A stretch of 64,000 nucleotides of DNA from Candidatus Yanofskybacteria bacterium (GCA_016185545.1 JACPNJ010000002.1:51299-115298), one strand, 5' to 3'; counted from the first letter of the stretch, positions 616 to 58,558 are shown. The notes: generated from the sequence alone by a model not told the origin. A program made the numbers and translations.

Positions 616-2682
616 TTATTGTACCATATTTAAAAACTCTTTTTCAGACAATATCTTTACCCCTAATTTTTTGGCCTTGTCATATTTACTGCCAGGTTCG
701 GTGCCGGCAACGACATAATTTGTTTTCTTAGAAATCGACGATGAAGCATCGCCGCCGTTTTCACGTACTAGTTCTTCGGCTTGTTCGCGCGATAATGTAT
801 CAAACGAACCGGTAAATACGAACGTCAGACCTTTTAATTTTAATGATTTTTGAGACGATTCCTGTTTGAGTATATGCAAGCCGACTTTTCTAAACTTCAT
901 CAGTAGCTTCTGGTTATAATCATTCTGGAACCAATCATATACGCTCTTAGCTACCACCTCACCGATTTCTTTGATGCTGCTAAGTTCCTCAATGGTTGCT
1001 TTTTCAAGTTTTTCCAAAGTACCAAACTTGCGCGCAAGATCAACTGCTGTTTCCGAACCGACATGTGGAATGCCGACTGCATAAATAAATCTATTCAGCG
1101 GAGCTTTTTTACGCGCCTGTATGGCATCAACGGTATTCTGCGCCGATTTTTCGGCAAAACGTTCCAAATTTAAAAGGTCGTCTTTGGTAAGCAAATACAA
1201 GTCGGCGGCATCCTTAATAAGCCCCGTGTCCATAAGCTGGTCAATAATTTTTGGCCCTACGCCGTCTATATCCGTCGCGCTTTTTGATGCAAAATGATAA
1301 ATCGCTTCTCGTTTGATGGCGGGACAATTTTTGTTTACGCATTTATGGGCCGCCTCACCTTCAACGCGTTTGACCGGTCCGCCGCAAACAGGACACTTTA
1401 TCGGAAAATGGAAAACCTTCTCTCGACCGGTACGAAGTTCTTTGAGAACTTTTTTAATGTCGGGAATCACGTCCCCGGCACGACCGACAATAACAGTATC
1501 TCCTATTTTTACGTCCAACCGGCGTATTTCATCTTCATTGTGCAATGTCGCGCGGCTTACCGTAGTACCGCCGATTTCTACCGGTTCAAGCACGGCTACC
1601 GGAGTCAGCACACCGGTACGTCCAACGCTGACAATTATGTTTTTAACCTTGGTCGTTGATTCTTTAGGTGAAAACTTATAGGCAATGGCGGCGCGAGGCG
1701 CTTTGCCAACCACTCCAAGTTTGTCAAACATTTTATTGTCATTCACAATTACCACAATGCCGTCTATTTCGTAATTCAGATTCCCGCGATGTTTTTCCCA
1801 GTAGTCGCGGAATTTTTGCACCTCATTCAAATCAGAGCAAAATTTATTATGCGGATTAGTTTTAAAACCAAGTTCATGGAGTATTTTATGTTCGTCTTCG
1901 TGGGTTTTTTGTCCTAAATTAGTTTTTAGAGAATAGGCAAAAGAGTCCAGATGGCGTGAGGCCGTAACCGCCGGGTTAAGTTGGCGTACAGAACCGGCGG
2001 CAAGATTACGCGGATTGGCATAAGTGGCGGTACCGGCTTTTTTTTGTTCTTTATTTATTTTTTCAAATTCTTTTTTACCGATAAACACCTCACCGCGAAC
2101 AACTAAACTAGGTTTTAGGTTATAGGTTATAGGTTTTAGGTTTAGTGTAAGGGGAATGGCTTCTACGGTTTTAAGGTTCTGGGTTATATTTTCGCCGATT
2201 GTACCGTCACCGCGAGTAGCGCCGACATCAAGAATACCGCCTTTATAAATCAGTTCAATCGCAAGGCCATCTATCTTTAATTCGCAATAGAACCCGCCTA
2301 ACTTTTGCTTCGCAAAACTTGAGCGGGCAGGTTCATTTTCCGGTATCGACATACCCACAGCTCTTGCCAAACGGCCAATCCAGTCCTCCATATCCTGACG
2401 GCTGAAGGCATCATTAAATGAAAGCATGCGCGCCGGATGGGTAAATTTTTCAAATTTTTCCAACGGCTTTCCGGCTACACGCTGGGTGGGAGAATCAGGA
2501 GTTATAAGGTCGGGAAATTGCTGTTCCAAATCAAAAAGCTCTTTTTTCAGAGAATCCTCCGCAGATTCCTCAATGATCGGCTTATCCAAAACCAACCGAT
2601 GGTAGCGGTATTTAGTGATCAGTTTTTTTAGTTTTTCTAGACGCTGTTTTACCTCTTGTTTAGTTACTTTTGTAATACTCAT
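616..2682 (-). CDS. ligA: NAD-dependent DNA ligase
   Basis: 688 aa; KxDG adenylation motif ([13 protein letters not shown]), Zn finger CPVCG...C, HhH and BRCT-like C-terminus; carries a heptamer-repeat insertion at 2110..2143. Confidence 0.95.
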
Positions 2683-2723
2683 AAGTCAAAAATTACCACA
2701 TTTTGGGTTAAATTAAAATGCCA

Positions 2724-2757
2724 AGAGGCTCAACCTCTTTAAAGAGGTTGAGCCTCT
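2724..2757. terminator. perfect 17-bp palindrome agaggctcaacctcttt/aaagaggttgagcctct between ligA and the surface-protein gene
   Basis: inverted repeat read directly; sits downstream of the minus-strand gene ending at 2802. Confidence 0.6.
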
Positions 2758-2801
2758 AAGTTGACTACTCCGCGTTTTCCGGCCTTCCACGCTTTTGTGG
2801 T

Positions 2802-56727: not shown

Positions 56728-56797
56728 ATAAATTCGGGATGTTATACTAAAAAAAGTTGTGATATTTTGCCAATGAAATTTTTTGGAGGCATAAAAA

Positions 56798-57118
56798 ATG
56801 ATTGGAAATCAGCAACAACAGATCATTGACATTATTCAACGTGCCACAAGAAAACCACAAGGCCAAGAGTGTTGGCAATTAAGAAAATCTGGGGGATGTC
56901 TTGAATGTGGTGGGTTTGCCACCAAGACTGTCCTAGGATGTCATGATTACCATTGCCCACAGACCGATCATAGAAGCTGTGGGGAAACAAGTATTACTTG
57001 CCCCCACTGTGCCGGAACGGGTCTGGGCGTTGTGGCGCTTTTCCAATTACTTCACGATATAGGGCAAATTGTCGGCATTAAAGTTAATATTCCAACAAGA
57101 CAAGACCTTCGCGGATAG
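56798..57118 (+). CDS. small Cys-rich protein with DnaJ-type CxxCxGxG zinc-finger motifs
   Basis: CLECGG and CPHCAGTG motifs; 106 aa. Confidence 0.45.
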   Translation: MIGNQQQQIIDIIQRATRKPQGQECWQLRKSGGCLECGGFATKTVLGCHDYHCPQTDHRSCGETSITCPHCAGTGLGVVALFQLLHDIGQIVGIKVNIPTRQDLRG

Positions 57119-57163
57119 ATAATAGATTTACGTATAACTGTGCCCATGTTAAAACTGGGCTTT

Positions 57164-58558
57164 TTAATTATTTAACTTTTCAGTTAAGTGGTCTGGTAGC
57201 TGGTCAACTTCTACTCTCTCCTGTTTCATTGTATCGCGGTCGCGGACGGTAACCTTACCATCCTTTGGGGAGTCAAAATCAAAAGTTACGCAAAATGGCG
57301 TGCCGATTTCGTCTTGGCGGCGATAGCGCTTACCGATAGATGCCGTCTCGTCGTATTGGCACATGAAATGTTTTTGCAAGTCACGGTAAATTTCATAAGC
57401 TGGCTTGGTCAGTTCCTCTTTACGCGATAATGGCAAAACCGCGATTTTTATCGGCGCAAGCATCTTCGGCAATCGCAGAACTACTTCTTTTCCATGCACC
57501 GCCTCTTCGTCGCCGCTTCTTGGTTCAACTTCGTCATAACTATTGATCAATACTGCCAGCATTAACCTTTCCAAACCAGTTGTCGGCTCCACTACATAAG
57601 GCAAAAATTCTTCGCCAGTTTCCGGATCTTTATATTTCAAATTCTGACCCGATAACTTTTCGTGGTTTTTTAAGTCAAAATCGGTCCTTGAAGCCAAACC
57701 GGTCAACTCGCCCCAACCGAAAGGAAACTCGTATTCCAAATCCACGGTACCTTTTGAGTAATGCGCCAGTTTTTCTTTAGGATGTTCATATCTTCTGACT
57801 TTATTTTTGACCAATCTCAAATCATCAATTAAAAATTTCTCAAGAAGTTTATCCCAGTTTTTATAATGCTCGTCTTCAGTGCCGGGTTTAACAAAATATT
57901 CCAGTTCGGCAATAGTAAATTCCTTGGTGCGAAAAATAAAGTTACCGGTGGTAATCTCGTTACGGAATGCTTTGCCGATCTGTGCTATGCCGAATGGCAA
58001 CCGCTTGCGCGTTGTTTCAAGAACCGTCTTAAAATCGGTAAACATTGTCTGGGCCAGTTCCCCTCGTAAATAAGCAACATGCTGCTGGTCCTCTACCGGA
58101 CCGATATAGGTTTTGAAAAGCAAATTAAAATTCTTAGGTTCTGTCCAGATGTCGCTACCCCGAGGTTGAACCTCTTTACTTAGAGGCTTACTTAGAGGCT
58201 CAGCCTCTAAGTGATTTTGGGCGTGTTCTTTTAGTTCATCCTCCTTATCGGAACGGAACCTCTCATGGCAAATTTTGCATTCTACCAATGGGTCGGTGAA
58301 ACTCTGCAAGTGACCTGACGCTTCCCAAACTTTAGGATTCATAATGACCGGGCCACGCAAGCCGACCATATCATCGCGTTCCTGAACAAATTTTCTCCAC
58401 CATAAGCTTGCGATATTATTGAACAGCTCATTGCCAAGATGTCCGAGATCCCAGCTATTGGCCAGCCCGCCGTATATCTCGCTTCCAGGAAAAACAAAAC
58501 CACGCCGCTTGCTTAGCGAAACGACTTTTTCCAGTAAATTTTCTTTTTCTTTAACCAT
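57164..58558 (-). CDS. glyS: glycyl-tRNA synthetase (alpha2, archaeal/eukaryotic type)
   Basis: N-terminal RRGFVFPGSEIYGGLANSWDLGHLG; class II motifs; in-frame palindromic-repeat insertion at 58161..58207. Confidence 0.9.
   Translation of the reverse strand: MVKEKENLLEKVVSLSKRRGFVFPGSEIYGGLANSWDLGHLGNELFNNIASLWWRKFVQERDDMVGLRGPVIMNPKVWEASGHLQSFTDPLVECKICHERFRSDKEDELKEHAQNHLEAEPLSKPLSKEVQPRGSDIWTEPKNFNLLFKTYIGPVEDQQHVAYLRGELAQTMFTDFKTVLETTRKRLPFGIAQIGKAFRNEITTGNFIFRTKEFTIAELEYFVKPGTEDEHYKNWDKLLEKFLIDDLRLVKNKVRRYEHPKEKLAHYSKGTVDLEYEFPFGWGELTGLASRTDFDLKNHEKLSGQNLKYKDPETGEEFLPYVVEPTTGLERLMLAVLINSYDEVEPRSGDEEAVHGKEVVLRLPKMLAPIKIAVLPLSRKEELTKPAYEIYRDLQKHFMCQYDETASIGKRYRRQDEIGTPFCVTFDFDSPKDGKVTVRDRDTMKQERVEVDQLPDHLTEKLNN

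Follow-up and report, generated by a model that had tools for sequence, protein, structure and literature searches.

Short dispersed repeats and their in-frame copies within conserved genes of a Candidatus Yanofskybacteria genome

Five genes in a 64-kb stretch of a Candidatus Yanofskybacteria genome (Patescibacteria/Candidate Phyla Radiation, CPR), namely ligA, infB, folD, glyA and glyS, contain short sequences resembling the repeats that lie between genes, which raises the question of how such sequences came to be there and how the reading frames accommodate them. A preliminary description had taken them to be copies of mobile elements. We followed this up in the whole 64-kb stretch (henceforth the window) and in ~10-20 kb from each relative, and consider it likely that dispersed non-autonomous repeats have spread here, with copies inside genes surviving only in frame, free of stops and at tolerant sites.

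Repeat families of the window

Tandem arrays of period 7 numbered 16 in the window as opposed to 0.2 in shuffled sequence, each of the other periods from 4 to 12 gave 0-3 arrays, and 12 of the 16 were intergenic. The heptamer units are AGGTGTC, CAGGTTA, CTAGGTT, TAGGTTW, AGCGWTT, GTTTAGA and ATTTTTG. The palindrome GAGGCTCAACCTC (at most two mismatches) had 10 matches with 0.8 expected, a number reached in none of the shuffles, and perfect hairpins of at least 9 bp numbered 12 with ~2.9 expected. The genome is best read as hosting two or more classes of short dispersed repeats that are non-autonomous; one resembles REP/RPE sequences, the other the TAACTGA/STRR heptamers. The intergenic elements are as follows.

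2724..2757, minus strand: hairpin AGAGGCTCAACCTCT-TTAA-AGAGGTTGAGCCTCT with a 15-bp stem
8612..8661, minus strand: hairpin of the AGAGGCTCAACCTCT/AGAGGTTGAGCCTCT family with a 23-bp stem, terminator-like on the gene strand
10823..10904, minus strand: intercistronic inverted heptamer-array hairpin, from stop to TTG start (z -7.2)
14195..14274, minus strand: inverted heptamer hairpin, 3' arm (AACCTAG)x5.6, 5' arm a relative of the infB copy
18881..19069, minus strand: long-range heptamer arm pair (18893-18929 / 19036-19066), the first arm being the closest relative of the ligA array
20192..20263, minus strand: second copy of the 10823 composite element, upstream of pilM
21988..22056, minus strand: inverted heptamer hairpin, CCTAAAA x4.7, between parA and parB
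55319..55395, minus strand: inverted heptamer hairpin (the 55319 element), 3' arm (ACCTGTA)x4.9, between M16 peptidase and AI-2E genes
63764..63838, minus strand: sister copy of the 55319 element, at the junction of hisS with a HIT gene

Class 1 is best read as composite heptamer elements of ~70-80 nt which, in mRNA sense, have a degenerate 5' arm of AGGTNNN type, separated by a short loop from a 3' arm that is a perfect heptamer array of NNNACCT type, as exemplified by the 10823 element with its degenerate AGGTNNN arm and perfect (ACCTGAC)x4.6 array. These hairpins reach exactly from the stop codon of the upstream cistron to the start of the next, mostly TTG. The intergenic hairpins have a high predicted stability (z -4 to -7), and the intergenic arrays end 0-5 nt upstream of a start codon without SD. 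At all five comparable junctions the start codon was TTG with the element and ATG in orthologs without it. The pairs 10823/20192 and 55319/63764 are ~85-90% identical over both arms (~75 nt), non-periodic detail included. The syntenic relative L202 (74% nucleotide identity) has no element at either the 55319 or the 63764 junction, the comparison marking the hairpins at 55313-55390 and 63764-63836 as window-specific insertions; at its hisS/HIT junction the genes overlap by ATGA.

Class 2 comprises nested palindromes made from 21-23-nt modules (consensus (C)TTAGAGG-YTSAR-CCTCTAA(G)), which when paired give stems of 15-23 bp. One 13-15-mer palindrome occurs at four loci in the window, and hairpins of it are found in the unrelated metagenome contigs L128 and L153. 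The hairpin at 2724-2757 lies between the stop of a 1176-aa ORF (2802-6332), which it follows, and the ligA start (2682), which it precedes. Both it and the 8612 hairpin had been described as terminator-like; both exist, but only 8612-8661 passed the terminator-like scan.

The elements are hairpins over their whole length, or arrays, without terminal inverted repeat (TIR) boundaries. A comparison of filled with empty glyS sites revealed no target-site duplication, so in its defining features the earlier MITE/REP label does not fit. A Pfam scan of 30 ORFs within these 64 kb returned no transposase, IS or RAYT. Mobility accordingly draws on comparative patterns: a whole element may be found in one of two syntenic relatives and be missing from the other, and near-identical copies are dispersed, as would fit elements that spread.

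In-gene copies and their orthologs

All five in-gene sequences are present, within 1-4 nt of where they were first placed, and, as had been proposed, all five are read in frame and belong to the intergenic repeat families, each matching intergenic copies when searched against the window by BLAST (E 7e-3 to 5e-13). The features within genes, including a second folD insert and two arrays in prepilin leaders, are listed below.

2109..2143, minus strand: ligA heptamer array, TAGGTTT x5 by TRF, (AACCTAW)x5 in mRNA sense
9636..9665, minus strand: heptamer array encoding the prepilin leader LKFLNAKHSTLNA/GFTLVE
10221..10253, minus strand: heptamer array (CAAAAAT)x4.7 encoding the prepilin leader MKIKNQKSKIKN/GFTLIE
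38920..38949, plus strand: infB heptamer array AACTAGAAACCAGCAACTAGAAACTAGCAA, in the N-terminal tail just before the G domain
44436..44561, minus strand: second folD insert, ~40 aa (residues ~228-268)
45085..45126, minus strand: first folD insert, a hairpin of the GAGGYTSARCCTC family, 42 nt encoding 14 aa (DVEPRDSLEAQPLS)
45690..45719, minus strand: glyA heptamer insert, 30 nt encoding 10 aa (LQVSGDRGQV) after IIISK, with ACCTGGCCCCTGTCACCTGAAACCTGTAAC at 45691-45720
58160..58210, minus strand: glyS palindromic insert, 51 nt encoding 17 aa (LEAEPLSKPLSKEVQPR), with an internal 12-nt duplication

The ligA array is translated within the frame of the ORF at 616-2682 (minus strand), encodes a stretch in the adenylation-domain loop AIPLTL...LVVRGEV and is identical to the intergenic array 18893-18927 at 34 of 35 nt (E 5e-13). 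Gaps against solved structures suggest a surface or loop position for it. TAT codons stand in place of TAA/TAG in the phase where stops would fall. A heptamer array encodes the loop AIPLxL[...]LVVRGEV in the majority of 34 relatives from the clade, which rules out a recent insertion; through most of the clade the arrays stay periodic, with units that differ between genomes, the orthologous array of L203 having the same unit as that of the window. The gatA site likewise keeps a 7-nt periodicity with genome-specific units. A purely neutral passenger should lose such periodicity, so that its retention in ligA through most of the clade speaks for continuing homogenisation or a constraint of some kind. 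The infB copy, 2 nt from the position first given, covers codons ~6-16 counted from a likely ATG start at 38903, in a variable N-terminal tail outside the folded domains, as the pilin-leader copies also lie outside folded domains. It matches 14245-14274 (27/30; E 2e-5) and brings no net gain in length relative to the nearest representative, P0361. Predicted folding energies of the ligA and infB copies were 0 and -1.2 kcal/mol, as for single arms without structure. The term palindromic element fits the folD and glyS copies only, the in-gene heptamer copies being non-folding single arms. Where all five had been presented as insertions, ortholog comparison supports glyA, folD and glyS, but neither ligA, with its clade-wide array site, nor infB, with no net gain.

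The glyA insert (GTTACAG GTTTCAG GTGACAG GGGCCAG GTA) falls where all solved SHMTs have a 9-aa gap, which suggests a loop, and is missing from 14 of 22 clade SHMT relatives. It matches 63805 and 10866 (25/28; E 1e-4 and 4e-4), and its 12-mer ACCTGGCCCCTG is repeated at 63807-63818, 1 nt from where this identity had been reported. In addition, it reproduces the distinctive ...CAGGGGCCAGGTAA end of the 5' arm of the 55319/63764 elements (the shared ends being ...CAGGGGCCAG-GTAA in glyA and 63764 and ...CAGGTGCCAG-TAA in 55319), being a copy of that subfamily's degenerate 5' arm. Stop-containing units of the perfect 3' arms, such as ACCTGAC and ACCTGTA, were found in none of the genes.

The first folD insert, whose arms (45089-45102 / 45114-45127) are complementary at 13 of 14 positions, matches intergenic copies at 14/14 nt (E 7e-3), folds as RNA with z -3.8 and corresponds to a 14-aa gap in all solved FolD. 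Within the second insert, GTCCCGTTAGAGAG and CTCTCTAACGGGAC form a perfect inverted repeat of 14 nt and TCTAACGGGACGAG is repeated directly; this insert also folds (z within -3.3 to -3.8). FolD relatives range from 263 aa, with no inserts, to 334 aa. In the FolD model (mean pLDDT 83), values below 50 are confined to residues 39-51 and 228-266, that is, to the two inserts; as the sole low-confidence parts of an otherwise confident model, both have the loop-like character that had been suggested. For the glyS insert, the quality of the GlyRS model did not suffice to judge its placement. This insert contains GAGGTTGAACCTC at 58162-58174 and AGAGGCTCAGCCTCT at 58194-58208, matches intergenic hairpins (18/19; E 2e-3) and folds with z -3.3. 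The GlyRS of P0242 and P0243 (89-90% identical) is without the insert, which is scored as window-specific relative to L202, and P0241/L201 have a 39-nt version, one carrier being 91% identical to the GlyRS of the window. The palindrome frame GAG-GYT-SAR-CCT is common to folD, glyS and relatives; one of the other two frames would, by reading of the sequence, place TGA in one arm.

Related lineages have insertions at the same sites, of different hairpins or units: at the glyA site L074 and L075 have in-gene hairpins of different sequence, both perfectly paired, and several relatives have small perfect hairpins of unrelated sequence, while the second folD site of relatives contains a shorter hairpin, GPIRGKDPLRALAASNGAS. 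The in-gene sites are used repeatedly, as hot spots or places of turnover, and do not represent single events. Structural selection instead of independent insertion could account for the L074/L075 hairpins.

Misassembly or chimeric joining at repeats, of which repeats in a metagenome-assembled genome are classic sites, is a highly improbable source of the inserts. The independent Logan assemblies SRR12113420 and SRR12113430, from separate runs, are 100% identical to window 42251-47240 (4990 and 3106 nt), support that covers the inserts in two of the five genes, folD and glyA. Every ORF remains open and in frame, and samples from other studies likewise contain homologous inserts (glyS in P0241, ERZ4903072; ligA in L203; folD in many FolD relatives).

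Routes by which the copies may have spread

If dispersed repeats have spread as we favour, both classes would generate copies over and over, candidate routes being exchange between copies through ectopic gene conversion or template switching, or the action of an ssDNA transposase that is specific for hairpins and encoded elsewhere, and slippage would homogenise the arrays. New copies would settle mainly at intercistronic junctions and in some cases inside genes, where purifying selection would retain a subset. With units of 7 nt, the frame shifts whenever one is added; the survivors would be those whose length is divisible by three (in-gene inserts are 30, 42, 51 and 39 nt) and which have no stop in the frame used and lie where the structure tolerates them (surface loops, N-terminal tail, cleaved pilin leaders). 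Retained inserts would be translated as short disordered loops, their peptides presumably neutral, that later decay or turn over. The folD copy of L075, with arms only ~7/9 complementary, fits passengers rather than conserved structures.

An origin in place with no transfer between loci, by slippage for the arrays and by template switching or fold-back priming for the palindromes, with a common mutational bias towards AGGT/ACCT-rich motifs making loci alike, seems quite unlikely to us. The perfect-array 3' arms are typical of recent slippage, glyS bears a fresh 12-nt tandem duplication, its two modules in the window, compared with L201, resemble a reciprocal exchange between modules, and both the unrelated perfect hairpins at the glyA site of several relatives and the lack of transposition signatures at the compared glyS sites are in line with such an origin. 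Against it stand the non-periodic detail that distant loci share, as between the glyA insert and the 5' arm ends of 55319/63764, the match of the ligA array to 18893 at 34/35 nt, the 85-90% identity of the paired composite elements over ~75 nt, and the recurrence of one palindrome at four window loci and in L128 and L153.

The in-gene hairpins and arrays and, on this view, certainly the intergenic ones might instead be functional cis-elements of the RNA level (through translational coupling or pausing, through the processing or stability of mRNA, or as binding sites), with selection keeping their positions in ligA, gatA, glyA and folD and with co-evolution of a trans-acting factor, which we regard as unlikely. 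The exact stop-to-start fit and stability of the intergenic hairpins, the switch between TTG and ATG at 5/5 junctions, the periodicity kept in ligA and gatA despite genome-specific units, and the perfect pairing of the L074/L075 hairpins despite their sequence difference all agree with it, as does the proposal that Beggiatoaceae heptamers immediately upstream of SD-less starts are translational regulators (PMC4679880). Against it, the ligA and infB copies have no predicted structure, close relatives without the glyS, glyA and folD inserts show no apparent compensation, copies are in varied states of decay, and at least six units coexist in the window, which argues against one sequence-specific factor. 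The steady association with TTG starts suggests that at least those intergenic copies are functional and not just selfish. It is doubtful, though conceivable, that the heptamer hairpins are portable intercistronic cassettes, a clade-wide undescribed system governing how translation is coupled without SD motifs in this CPR lineage: the 5' end may supply or abut the stop and the 3' end the TTG start, turning overlapping ATG junctions into stop-hairpin-TTG, and the internal arrays of LigA, GatA, SHMT and TopA may owe their periodicity to constant exchange with the cassettes. If true, a 7-nt repeat 'code', and not junk insertions, would be common to gene junctions and enzyme loops.

Known repeat systems and significance

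Cyanobacterial STRR heptamers were reportedly described by Mazel et al. in 1990. TAACTGA heptamer direct repeats occur intergenically in Beggiatoaceae, cyanobacteria and Bacteroidetes (PMC4679880). As in both, the heptamers here are tandem, in 2-6 copies, mainly intergenic and end a few nt from an SD-less start, with occasional copies in ORFs in stop-free orientation. In contrast to them, the window arrays form inverted pairs as stop-to-start hairpins, have many units and are tied to TTG starts, and in-gene copies lie in internal loops (LigA adenylation domain, SHMT, GatA, TopA), not just at ORF ends. The TAACTGA and STRR1-3 units are absent from the window units, GTAACTG being found only in the relative L202, where a (GTAACTG)x4.9 array in topA has 6 of 7 bases as in TAACTGA.

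Rickettsia palindromic elements (RPEs) are ~100-150 bp (Ogata et al. 2000, 2002, summarised in PMC10969869). Like these, the repeats described here are dispersed palindromic families in a reduced genome, intergenic and in frame within unrelated conserved genes, the insert being translated as an additional peptide where the fold permits; they form a multi-copy family with palindromic folding (folD, glyS) and in-frame insertions that orthologs lack (glyA, folD, glyS). Unlike RPEs, the in-gene elements are nested mini-palindromes of 30-51 nt, the host belongs to the Patescibacteria, and related genomes reuse the same protein sites with different elements; insert length and host phylum, the basis of comparison here in place of RPE consensus sequences, set them apart from RPEs proper. 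With REP/REPIN and MITE sequences (PMC3733652, PMC3116915, PMC10969869) they share the form of short multi-copy hairpins at intercistronic or terminator positions, sometimes in frame with ORFs, but not a GTAG/CGTC head, TIRs, target-site duplication or, within 64 kb, a RAYT/IS gene. The REP class was rejected, as the module consensus is without that head and copies also lie inside genes. Borg tandem repeats reportedly arise independently, without copying between loci (PMC9879509); those fast-evolving in-gene nucleotide repeats similarly create new intrinsically disordered segments, whereas here the unit is 7 nt and copies are common to intergenic families.

Overall, repeat colonisation of coding genes, classically a Rickettsia curiosity, is now extended to the Candidate Phyla Radiation, in a version with far smaller elements and 7-nt arrays. 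For annotation and phylogenetics, this means that CPR proteins have lineage-specific loop inserts derived from repeats, which are not functional motifs, and that heptamer arrays blur the calling of start codons. The window offers a natural setting for repeat proliferation in reduced genomes with almost no intergenic space and for the birth of disordered loops, and the association of hairpins with TTG starts where genes meet raises a testable question about how translation is initiated and coupled in organisms not yet culturable alone.

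Repeat families and their copies inside genes

The preliminary description had placed copies of intergenic repeats inside five housekeeping genes, and all five sequences were found, 1-4 nt from where they had been located, in intact ORFs. As had been proposed, they are kin of the intergenic repeats, each having a BLAST match to an intergenic copy within the window.

Host genes (assigned from Pfam and solved homologs) and intergenic matches of their repeat copies (BLAST)
616-2682, minus strand: NAD-dependent DNA ligase (ligA); match at 18893-18927, 34/35 identity, E 5e-13
38867/38903-40459, plus strand: short IF2 (infB); match at 14245-14274, 27/30 identity, E 2e-5
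45246-46418, minus strand: SHMT (glyA); matches at 10866 (20/21 identity, E 1e-4) and 63805 (25/28 identity, E 4e-4)
44251-45240, minus strand: FolD; matches at 2743 and 8639, 14/14 identity, E 7e-3
57164-58558, minus strand: GlyQS-type GlyRS (glyS); matches to the hairpins at 2743 and 8639, 18/19 identity, E 2e-3

The in-gene sequences are more than chance resemblances. Period 7 is the sole over-represented tandem period in the window (GC content about 42%), with 16 arrays compared to 0.2 in shuffles and 0-3 for the other periods between 4 and 12; GAGGCTCAACCTC occurs 10 times with up to 2 mismatches (0.8 expected), and there are 12 perfect hairpins of at least 9 bp against about 2.9. The segment 42251-47240, which contains the glyA insert and both folD inserts, is matched identically by two independent Logan assemblies, each of a different sequencing run. 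The exact GlyRS protein has no record in the public gene index, where FolD and LigA of the same contig are on record.

The repeats form two dispersed families. In the first, one composite heptamer element occupies many intercistronic gaps in operons on the minus strand, both at 8.5-22 kb (parAB and a type IV pilus operon) and at 55-64 kb. Read in mRNA sense, it comprises a stop codon (often TAG), a degenerate AGGTNNN-type array (the 5' arm), a loop of 5-12 nt, a perfect NNNACCT-type array of 4-5.6 units (the 3' arm), 0-5 nt and the start codon. The spacers that carry it fold much better than shuffles (z -4 to -7) and show no strand asymmetry of hairpin stability, so that RNA-level and DNA-level structure are indistinguishable. 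The elements starting at 10823 and 20192, and likewise those at 55319 and 63764, are about 85-90% identical in both arms, non-periodic detail included, and are thus copies of whole elements rather than independent slippage products. Modules of the second family, (C)TTAGAGG-YTSAR-CCTCTAA(G), are self-complementary, and two of them with complementary centres form a 15-bp stem (2724-2757) and a 23-bp stem (8612-8661), the latter hairpin being terminator-like on the gene strand. Allowing up to 1 mismatch, the 13-mer palindrome is absent from all GTDB-representative relatives (L003-L031). The 15-mer palindrome also occurs as hairpin pairs in two unrelated metagenome contigs, L153 and L128, the second of which also has heptamer arrays; in the metagenome scan for AGAGGCTCAACCTCT, nearly all of the matches listed were single chance ones and, among those listed, only these contigs had hairpin pairs.

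At gathering thresholds Rfam returned tRNAs and two LOOT RNAs only, none of them over the repeats. Both LOOT motifs (RF03000), at 38205-38328 and 31123-31237 with scores of 79.8 and 49.9 bits, are situated in long gaps without coding sequence. A CTTGG-rich, heptamer-like sequence of ~65 nt, TTTCGCCTTGGGNGCTTGGAT...GGGTATTCGAAAAAA, is present in three copies (32524-32590, 35135-35200 and 38039-38105), each after one of three similar-sized genes (272-275 aa); these copies do not fold (z about -0.7) and may belong to a tandem gene-pair duplication. Two more very stable intergenic hairpins (63296-63416 and 61748-61866; z -5 to -6) fall outside both main families, and neither is present in the syntenic relative L202; one of them, CCCCGCCCTCTA...TAGAGGGCGGGG, lies between convergent genes.

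Insertions in glyA, folD and glyS, and the arrays of ligA and infB

All five copies had been read as insertions, and this interpretation is partly supported: it is right for glyA, folD and glyS and for tolerated repeat insertions generally, but ligA is an ancient array site and infB has no net insertion, so that for these two it has to be revised. In SHMT, LQVSGDRGQ faces a 9-residue gap in all solved SHMTs, and its position is empty in 14 of 22 clade relatives. The 30-nt glyA insert (GTTACAG GTTTCAG GTGACAG GGGCCAG GTA) reproduces the 5' arm found in the 55319/63764 subfamily, its ...CAGGGGCCAGGTAA end included. In FolD, the 14-residue insert DVEPRDSLEAQPLS faces a gap in solved FolD, and its DNA is a complete hairpin, GTTGAGCCTC-11 nt-GAGGCTCAAC. 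A second in-frame folD insert of ~40 residues (44436-44561, residues ~228-268), absent from the earlier list, contains a 14-nt perfect inverted repeat and a duplicated TCTAACGGGACGAG, and a shorter hairpin, GPIRGKDPLRALAASNGAS, occupies its site in relatives. A superfamily joining this insert to the palindromes remains a suggestion, because the TTAGAGG 7-mer is only marginally enriched (12 versus 6.7). An AlphaFold model of FolD made with 24 relatives reached a mean pLDDT of 83 and a pTM of 0.81, a confident result as a whole; its only segments with pLDDT <50, at 39-51 and 228-266, are exactly the two inserts. A loop location, as proposed, is shown for FolD, whereas the GlyRS model (mean pLDDT 67) is too poor to place its insert. 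A third small FolD insert, RPEAKLLGV (~residues 140-150), coincides with a dip in pLDDT.

The GlyRS proteins of two relatives (P0242 and P0243, 89-90% identical) read ...EHAxxH-KGK-AEWTEPKNF and have no insert; that of the window has 17 residues more, LEAEPLSKPLSKEVQPR, and a 91%-identical relative from a different study has a 13-residue version. The insert DNA consists of two complementary modules, to which the window adds a fresh 12-nt duplication, and comparison of the filled and empty glyS alleles revealed no target-site duplication. Comparison with GlyRS of M. tuberculosis alone masks the insert, because that protein carries an unrelated stretch of about equal length at the site. The insert directly follows a conserved C-x2-C...H-x3-H motif (residues 94-116), a probable zinc knuckle whose residues C94, C97, H112 and H116 are invariant or nearly so among 30 relatives. 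The in-gene palindromes fold (z about -3.5); the heptamer copies inside genes are single unstructured arms, a finding that speaks against these copies having a structural role.

At the array position, the E. coli LigA loop is shorter by only 4 residues, and in most of 34 clade relatives the loop has the 7-residue periodicity typical of a translated heptamer array (for example LKPKTYNLKP, LNPKPFTLNP, LQTTNYKLQT, LETGSYKLES and LETENWKLKT). The underlying DNA is (CTACAAA)x4.4 in L198 and CTGGAAA-type in L197 and L199, and ligA of the syntenic relative L203 (82% identical) shares the window's AACCTAW unit. The central Tyr/Trp codon stands in place of TAA/TAG/TGA in the phase that would otherwise read stops; the periodicity is therefore a property of the DNA, shaped by stop avoidance. 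The ligA array is thus an old resident and not a recent insertion. The infB array codes for part of a 20-residue tail ahead of the G domain, and no net insertion is demonstrable relative to the nearest representative (68% identity), whose tail has equal length and another sequence.

Heptamer arrays also code for prepilin leaders of the type IV pilus operon (10221-10253, 9636-9665 and 9023-9089), giving MKIKNQKSKIKN before GFTLIE and LKFLNAKHSTLNA before GFTLVE; the orthologous leaders in L203 are shorter and lack arrays (MNPKHNT before GFTLIE).

Intercistronic elements, known repeats and origin

Alignment to L202 covered window 47.5-64 kb (74% nucleotide identity) and alignment to L203 covered 1-14 kb. 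Three features score as insertions specific to the window relative to L202: the glyS palindrome and the heptamer hairpins at 63764-63836 and 55313-55390. At five junctions (AI-2E, HIT, the pilin-like genes at 10822 and 9674, and pilD at 12109) the window has a hairpin element and then TTG; the element is missing at these junctions in L202 and L203, whose genes abut or overlap there and begin with an ATG that in many cases overlaps the upstream stop. Every heptamer-hairpin element has its perfect array as the arm next to the start.

Starts at the junctions
Window, after elements: 10822, 14194, 17279, 20191, 21987, 55318, 63764, 9674, 12109
Relatives, compared starts: L202 12728 and 5839; L203 3296, 4387 and 2078; L200 ~7130

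In genes directly downstream of the hairpins, TTG lies 0-5 nt past the array and has no SD motif. At the M16-to-AI-2E junction of another relative, L200, a heptamer hairpin of a wholly different unit (TAGAAAA/TTTCTAC) is directly followed by TTG. L003-L031 contain no perfect period-7 runs by a strict scan, but a scored period-7 scan does detect arrays there, at a lower density. Array density is 0.25/kb for the window, 0.04/kb across 29 related CPR loci and 0.007/kb across non-CPR loci; the arrays have thus expanded in the window's lineage.

The window arrays resemble the heptamer repeats of cyanobacteria known as STRR. They are also like the TAACTGA repeats of Beggiatoaceae, cyanobacteria and Bacteroidetes, which end just ahead of SD-less start codons and now and then lie within ORFs, in the orientation that has no stops (PMC4679880). 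New in the window arrays are their pairing as inverted arms of hairpins, their varied units, the association with TTG and the location in internal loops of essential enzymes. For the in-gene palindromes, the closest analogue is the Rickettsia palindromic element, described in an article citing Ogata 2000/2002 as a repeat inserted in frame within metabolic genes (PMC10969869); the window elements are three to five times shorter, of unrelated sequence and from another phylum, and are therefore analogues, not members, of that family. Within the open-access literature we found no description of in-frame repeats in CPR/Patescibacteria, which is not proof of absence.

The earlier MITE/REP label is not justified, as the repeats do not fit the definition of either class. 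No TIR and no target-site duplication were found, nor, by Pfam, a transposase or RAYT among 30 ORFs; the proposed mobility is consequently a reading of comparative patterns. A non-autonomous process would make the copies, perhaps by ectopic conversion or template switching from copy to copy, or through a hairpin-specific ssDNA transposase coded elsewhere; slippage would homogenise the heptamer arrays, and selection would then filter the copies. This filter is visible in insert lengths of 30, 39, 42 or 51 nt, in the palindrome frame, always GAG-GYT-SAR-CCT (EVEP, EAQP, EVQP), and in the restriction of genes to stop-free copies, 3'-arm units with stops never lying inside them. It is rather unlikely that the heptamer elements are portable stop-hairpin-TTG junction cassettes that swap sequence with the enzyme-loop arrays.

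Inteins or introns were rejected, the inserts being too small and their frame and stop constraint implying translation; essential single-copy enzymes make implausible hosts for phase-variation contingency loci, and TIGR or CRISPR-like arrays would have a spacer architecture that these repeats lack. Elsewhere in the window, a TaqI-like restriction endonuclease adjoins a LexA DNA-binding/S24 peptidase-N6/N4 DNA methylase fusion (27658-28353 and 28345-29868), and an ORF with weak LAGLIDADG matches just upstream (26481-27566) overlaps tRNA-Ser.

Reuse of insertion sites in relatives

In related genomes, the codon positions of the inserts are occupied by other structured inserts. FolD site 1 contains CACTTGGCGGTC.GACCGCCAAGTG (HLAVGPPSG) in L076, the same insert plus a GGGGTTCAACCTC...GAGGTTGAACCTC pair in L074, and a decayed copy in L075. 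The SHMT site carries small perfect hairpins in L074 and L075, unlike each other in sequence, another heptamer array in L021 and yet another hairpin in L016. At about residue 50-70 of GatA, L198 has (CTACAAA)-type and L199 (AAAACTG)-type arrays, the in-frame gatA arrays, which occupy two sites in the gene, lying at 4607-4672 and 5804-5840 in L198 and at 8380-8414 in L199. Within each of these genomes the gatA unit equals the ligA-loop unit, and such sharing indicates inter-locus exchange; it is not universal, as the JACOZV genome has AACCTAW in ligA and GTAACTG in topA. In topA of L202, (GTAACTG)x4.9 lies in frame at 678-711, its unit one base off the TAACTGA repeat that Beggiatoaceae and cyanobacteria have. 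When compared with L202, LeuRS and a 192-aa ORF of the window show several other small in-frame insertions (51035-51067, 50802-50825, 49723-49752 and 61509-61535); they are partly palindromic and match no family in the window. The simplest reading of the reused sites is that few enzyme positions tolerate added residues, so that surviving insertions would accumulate there.
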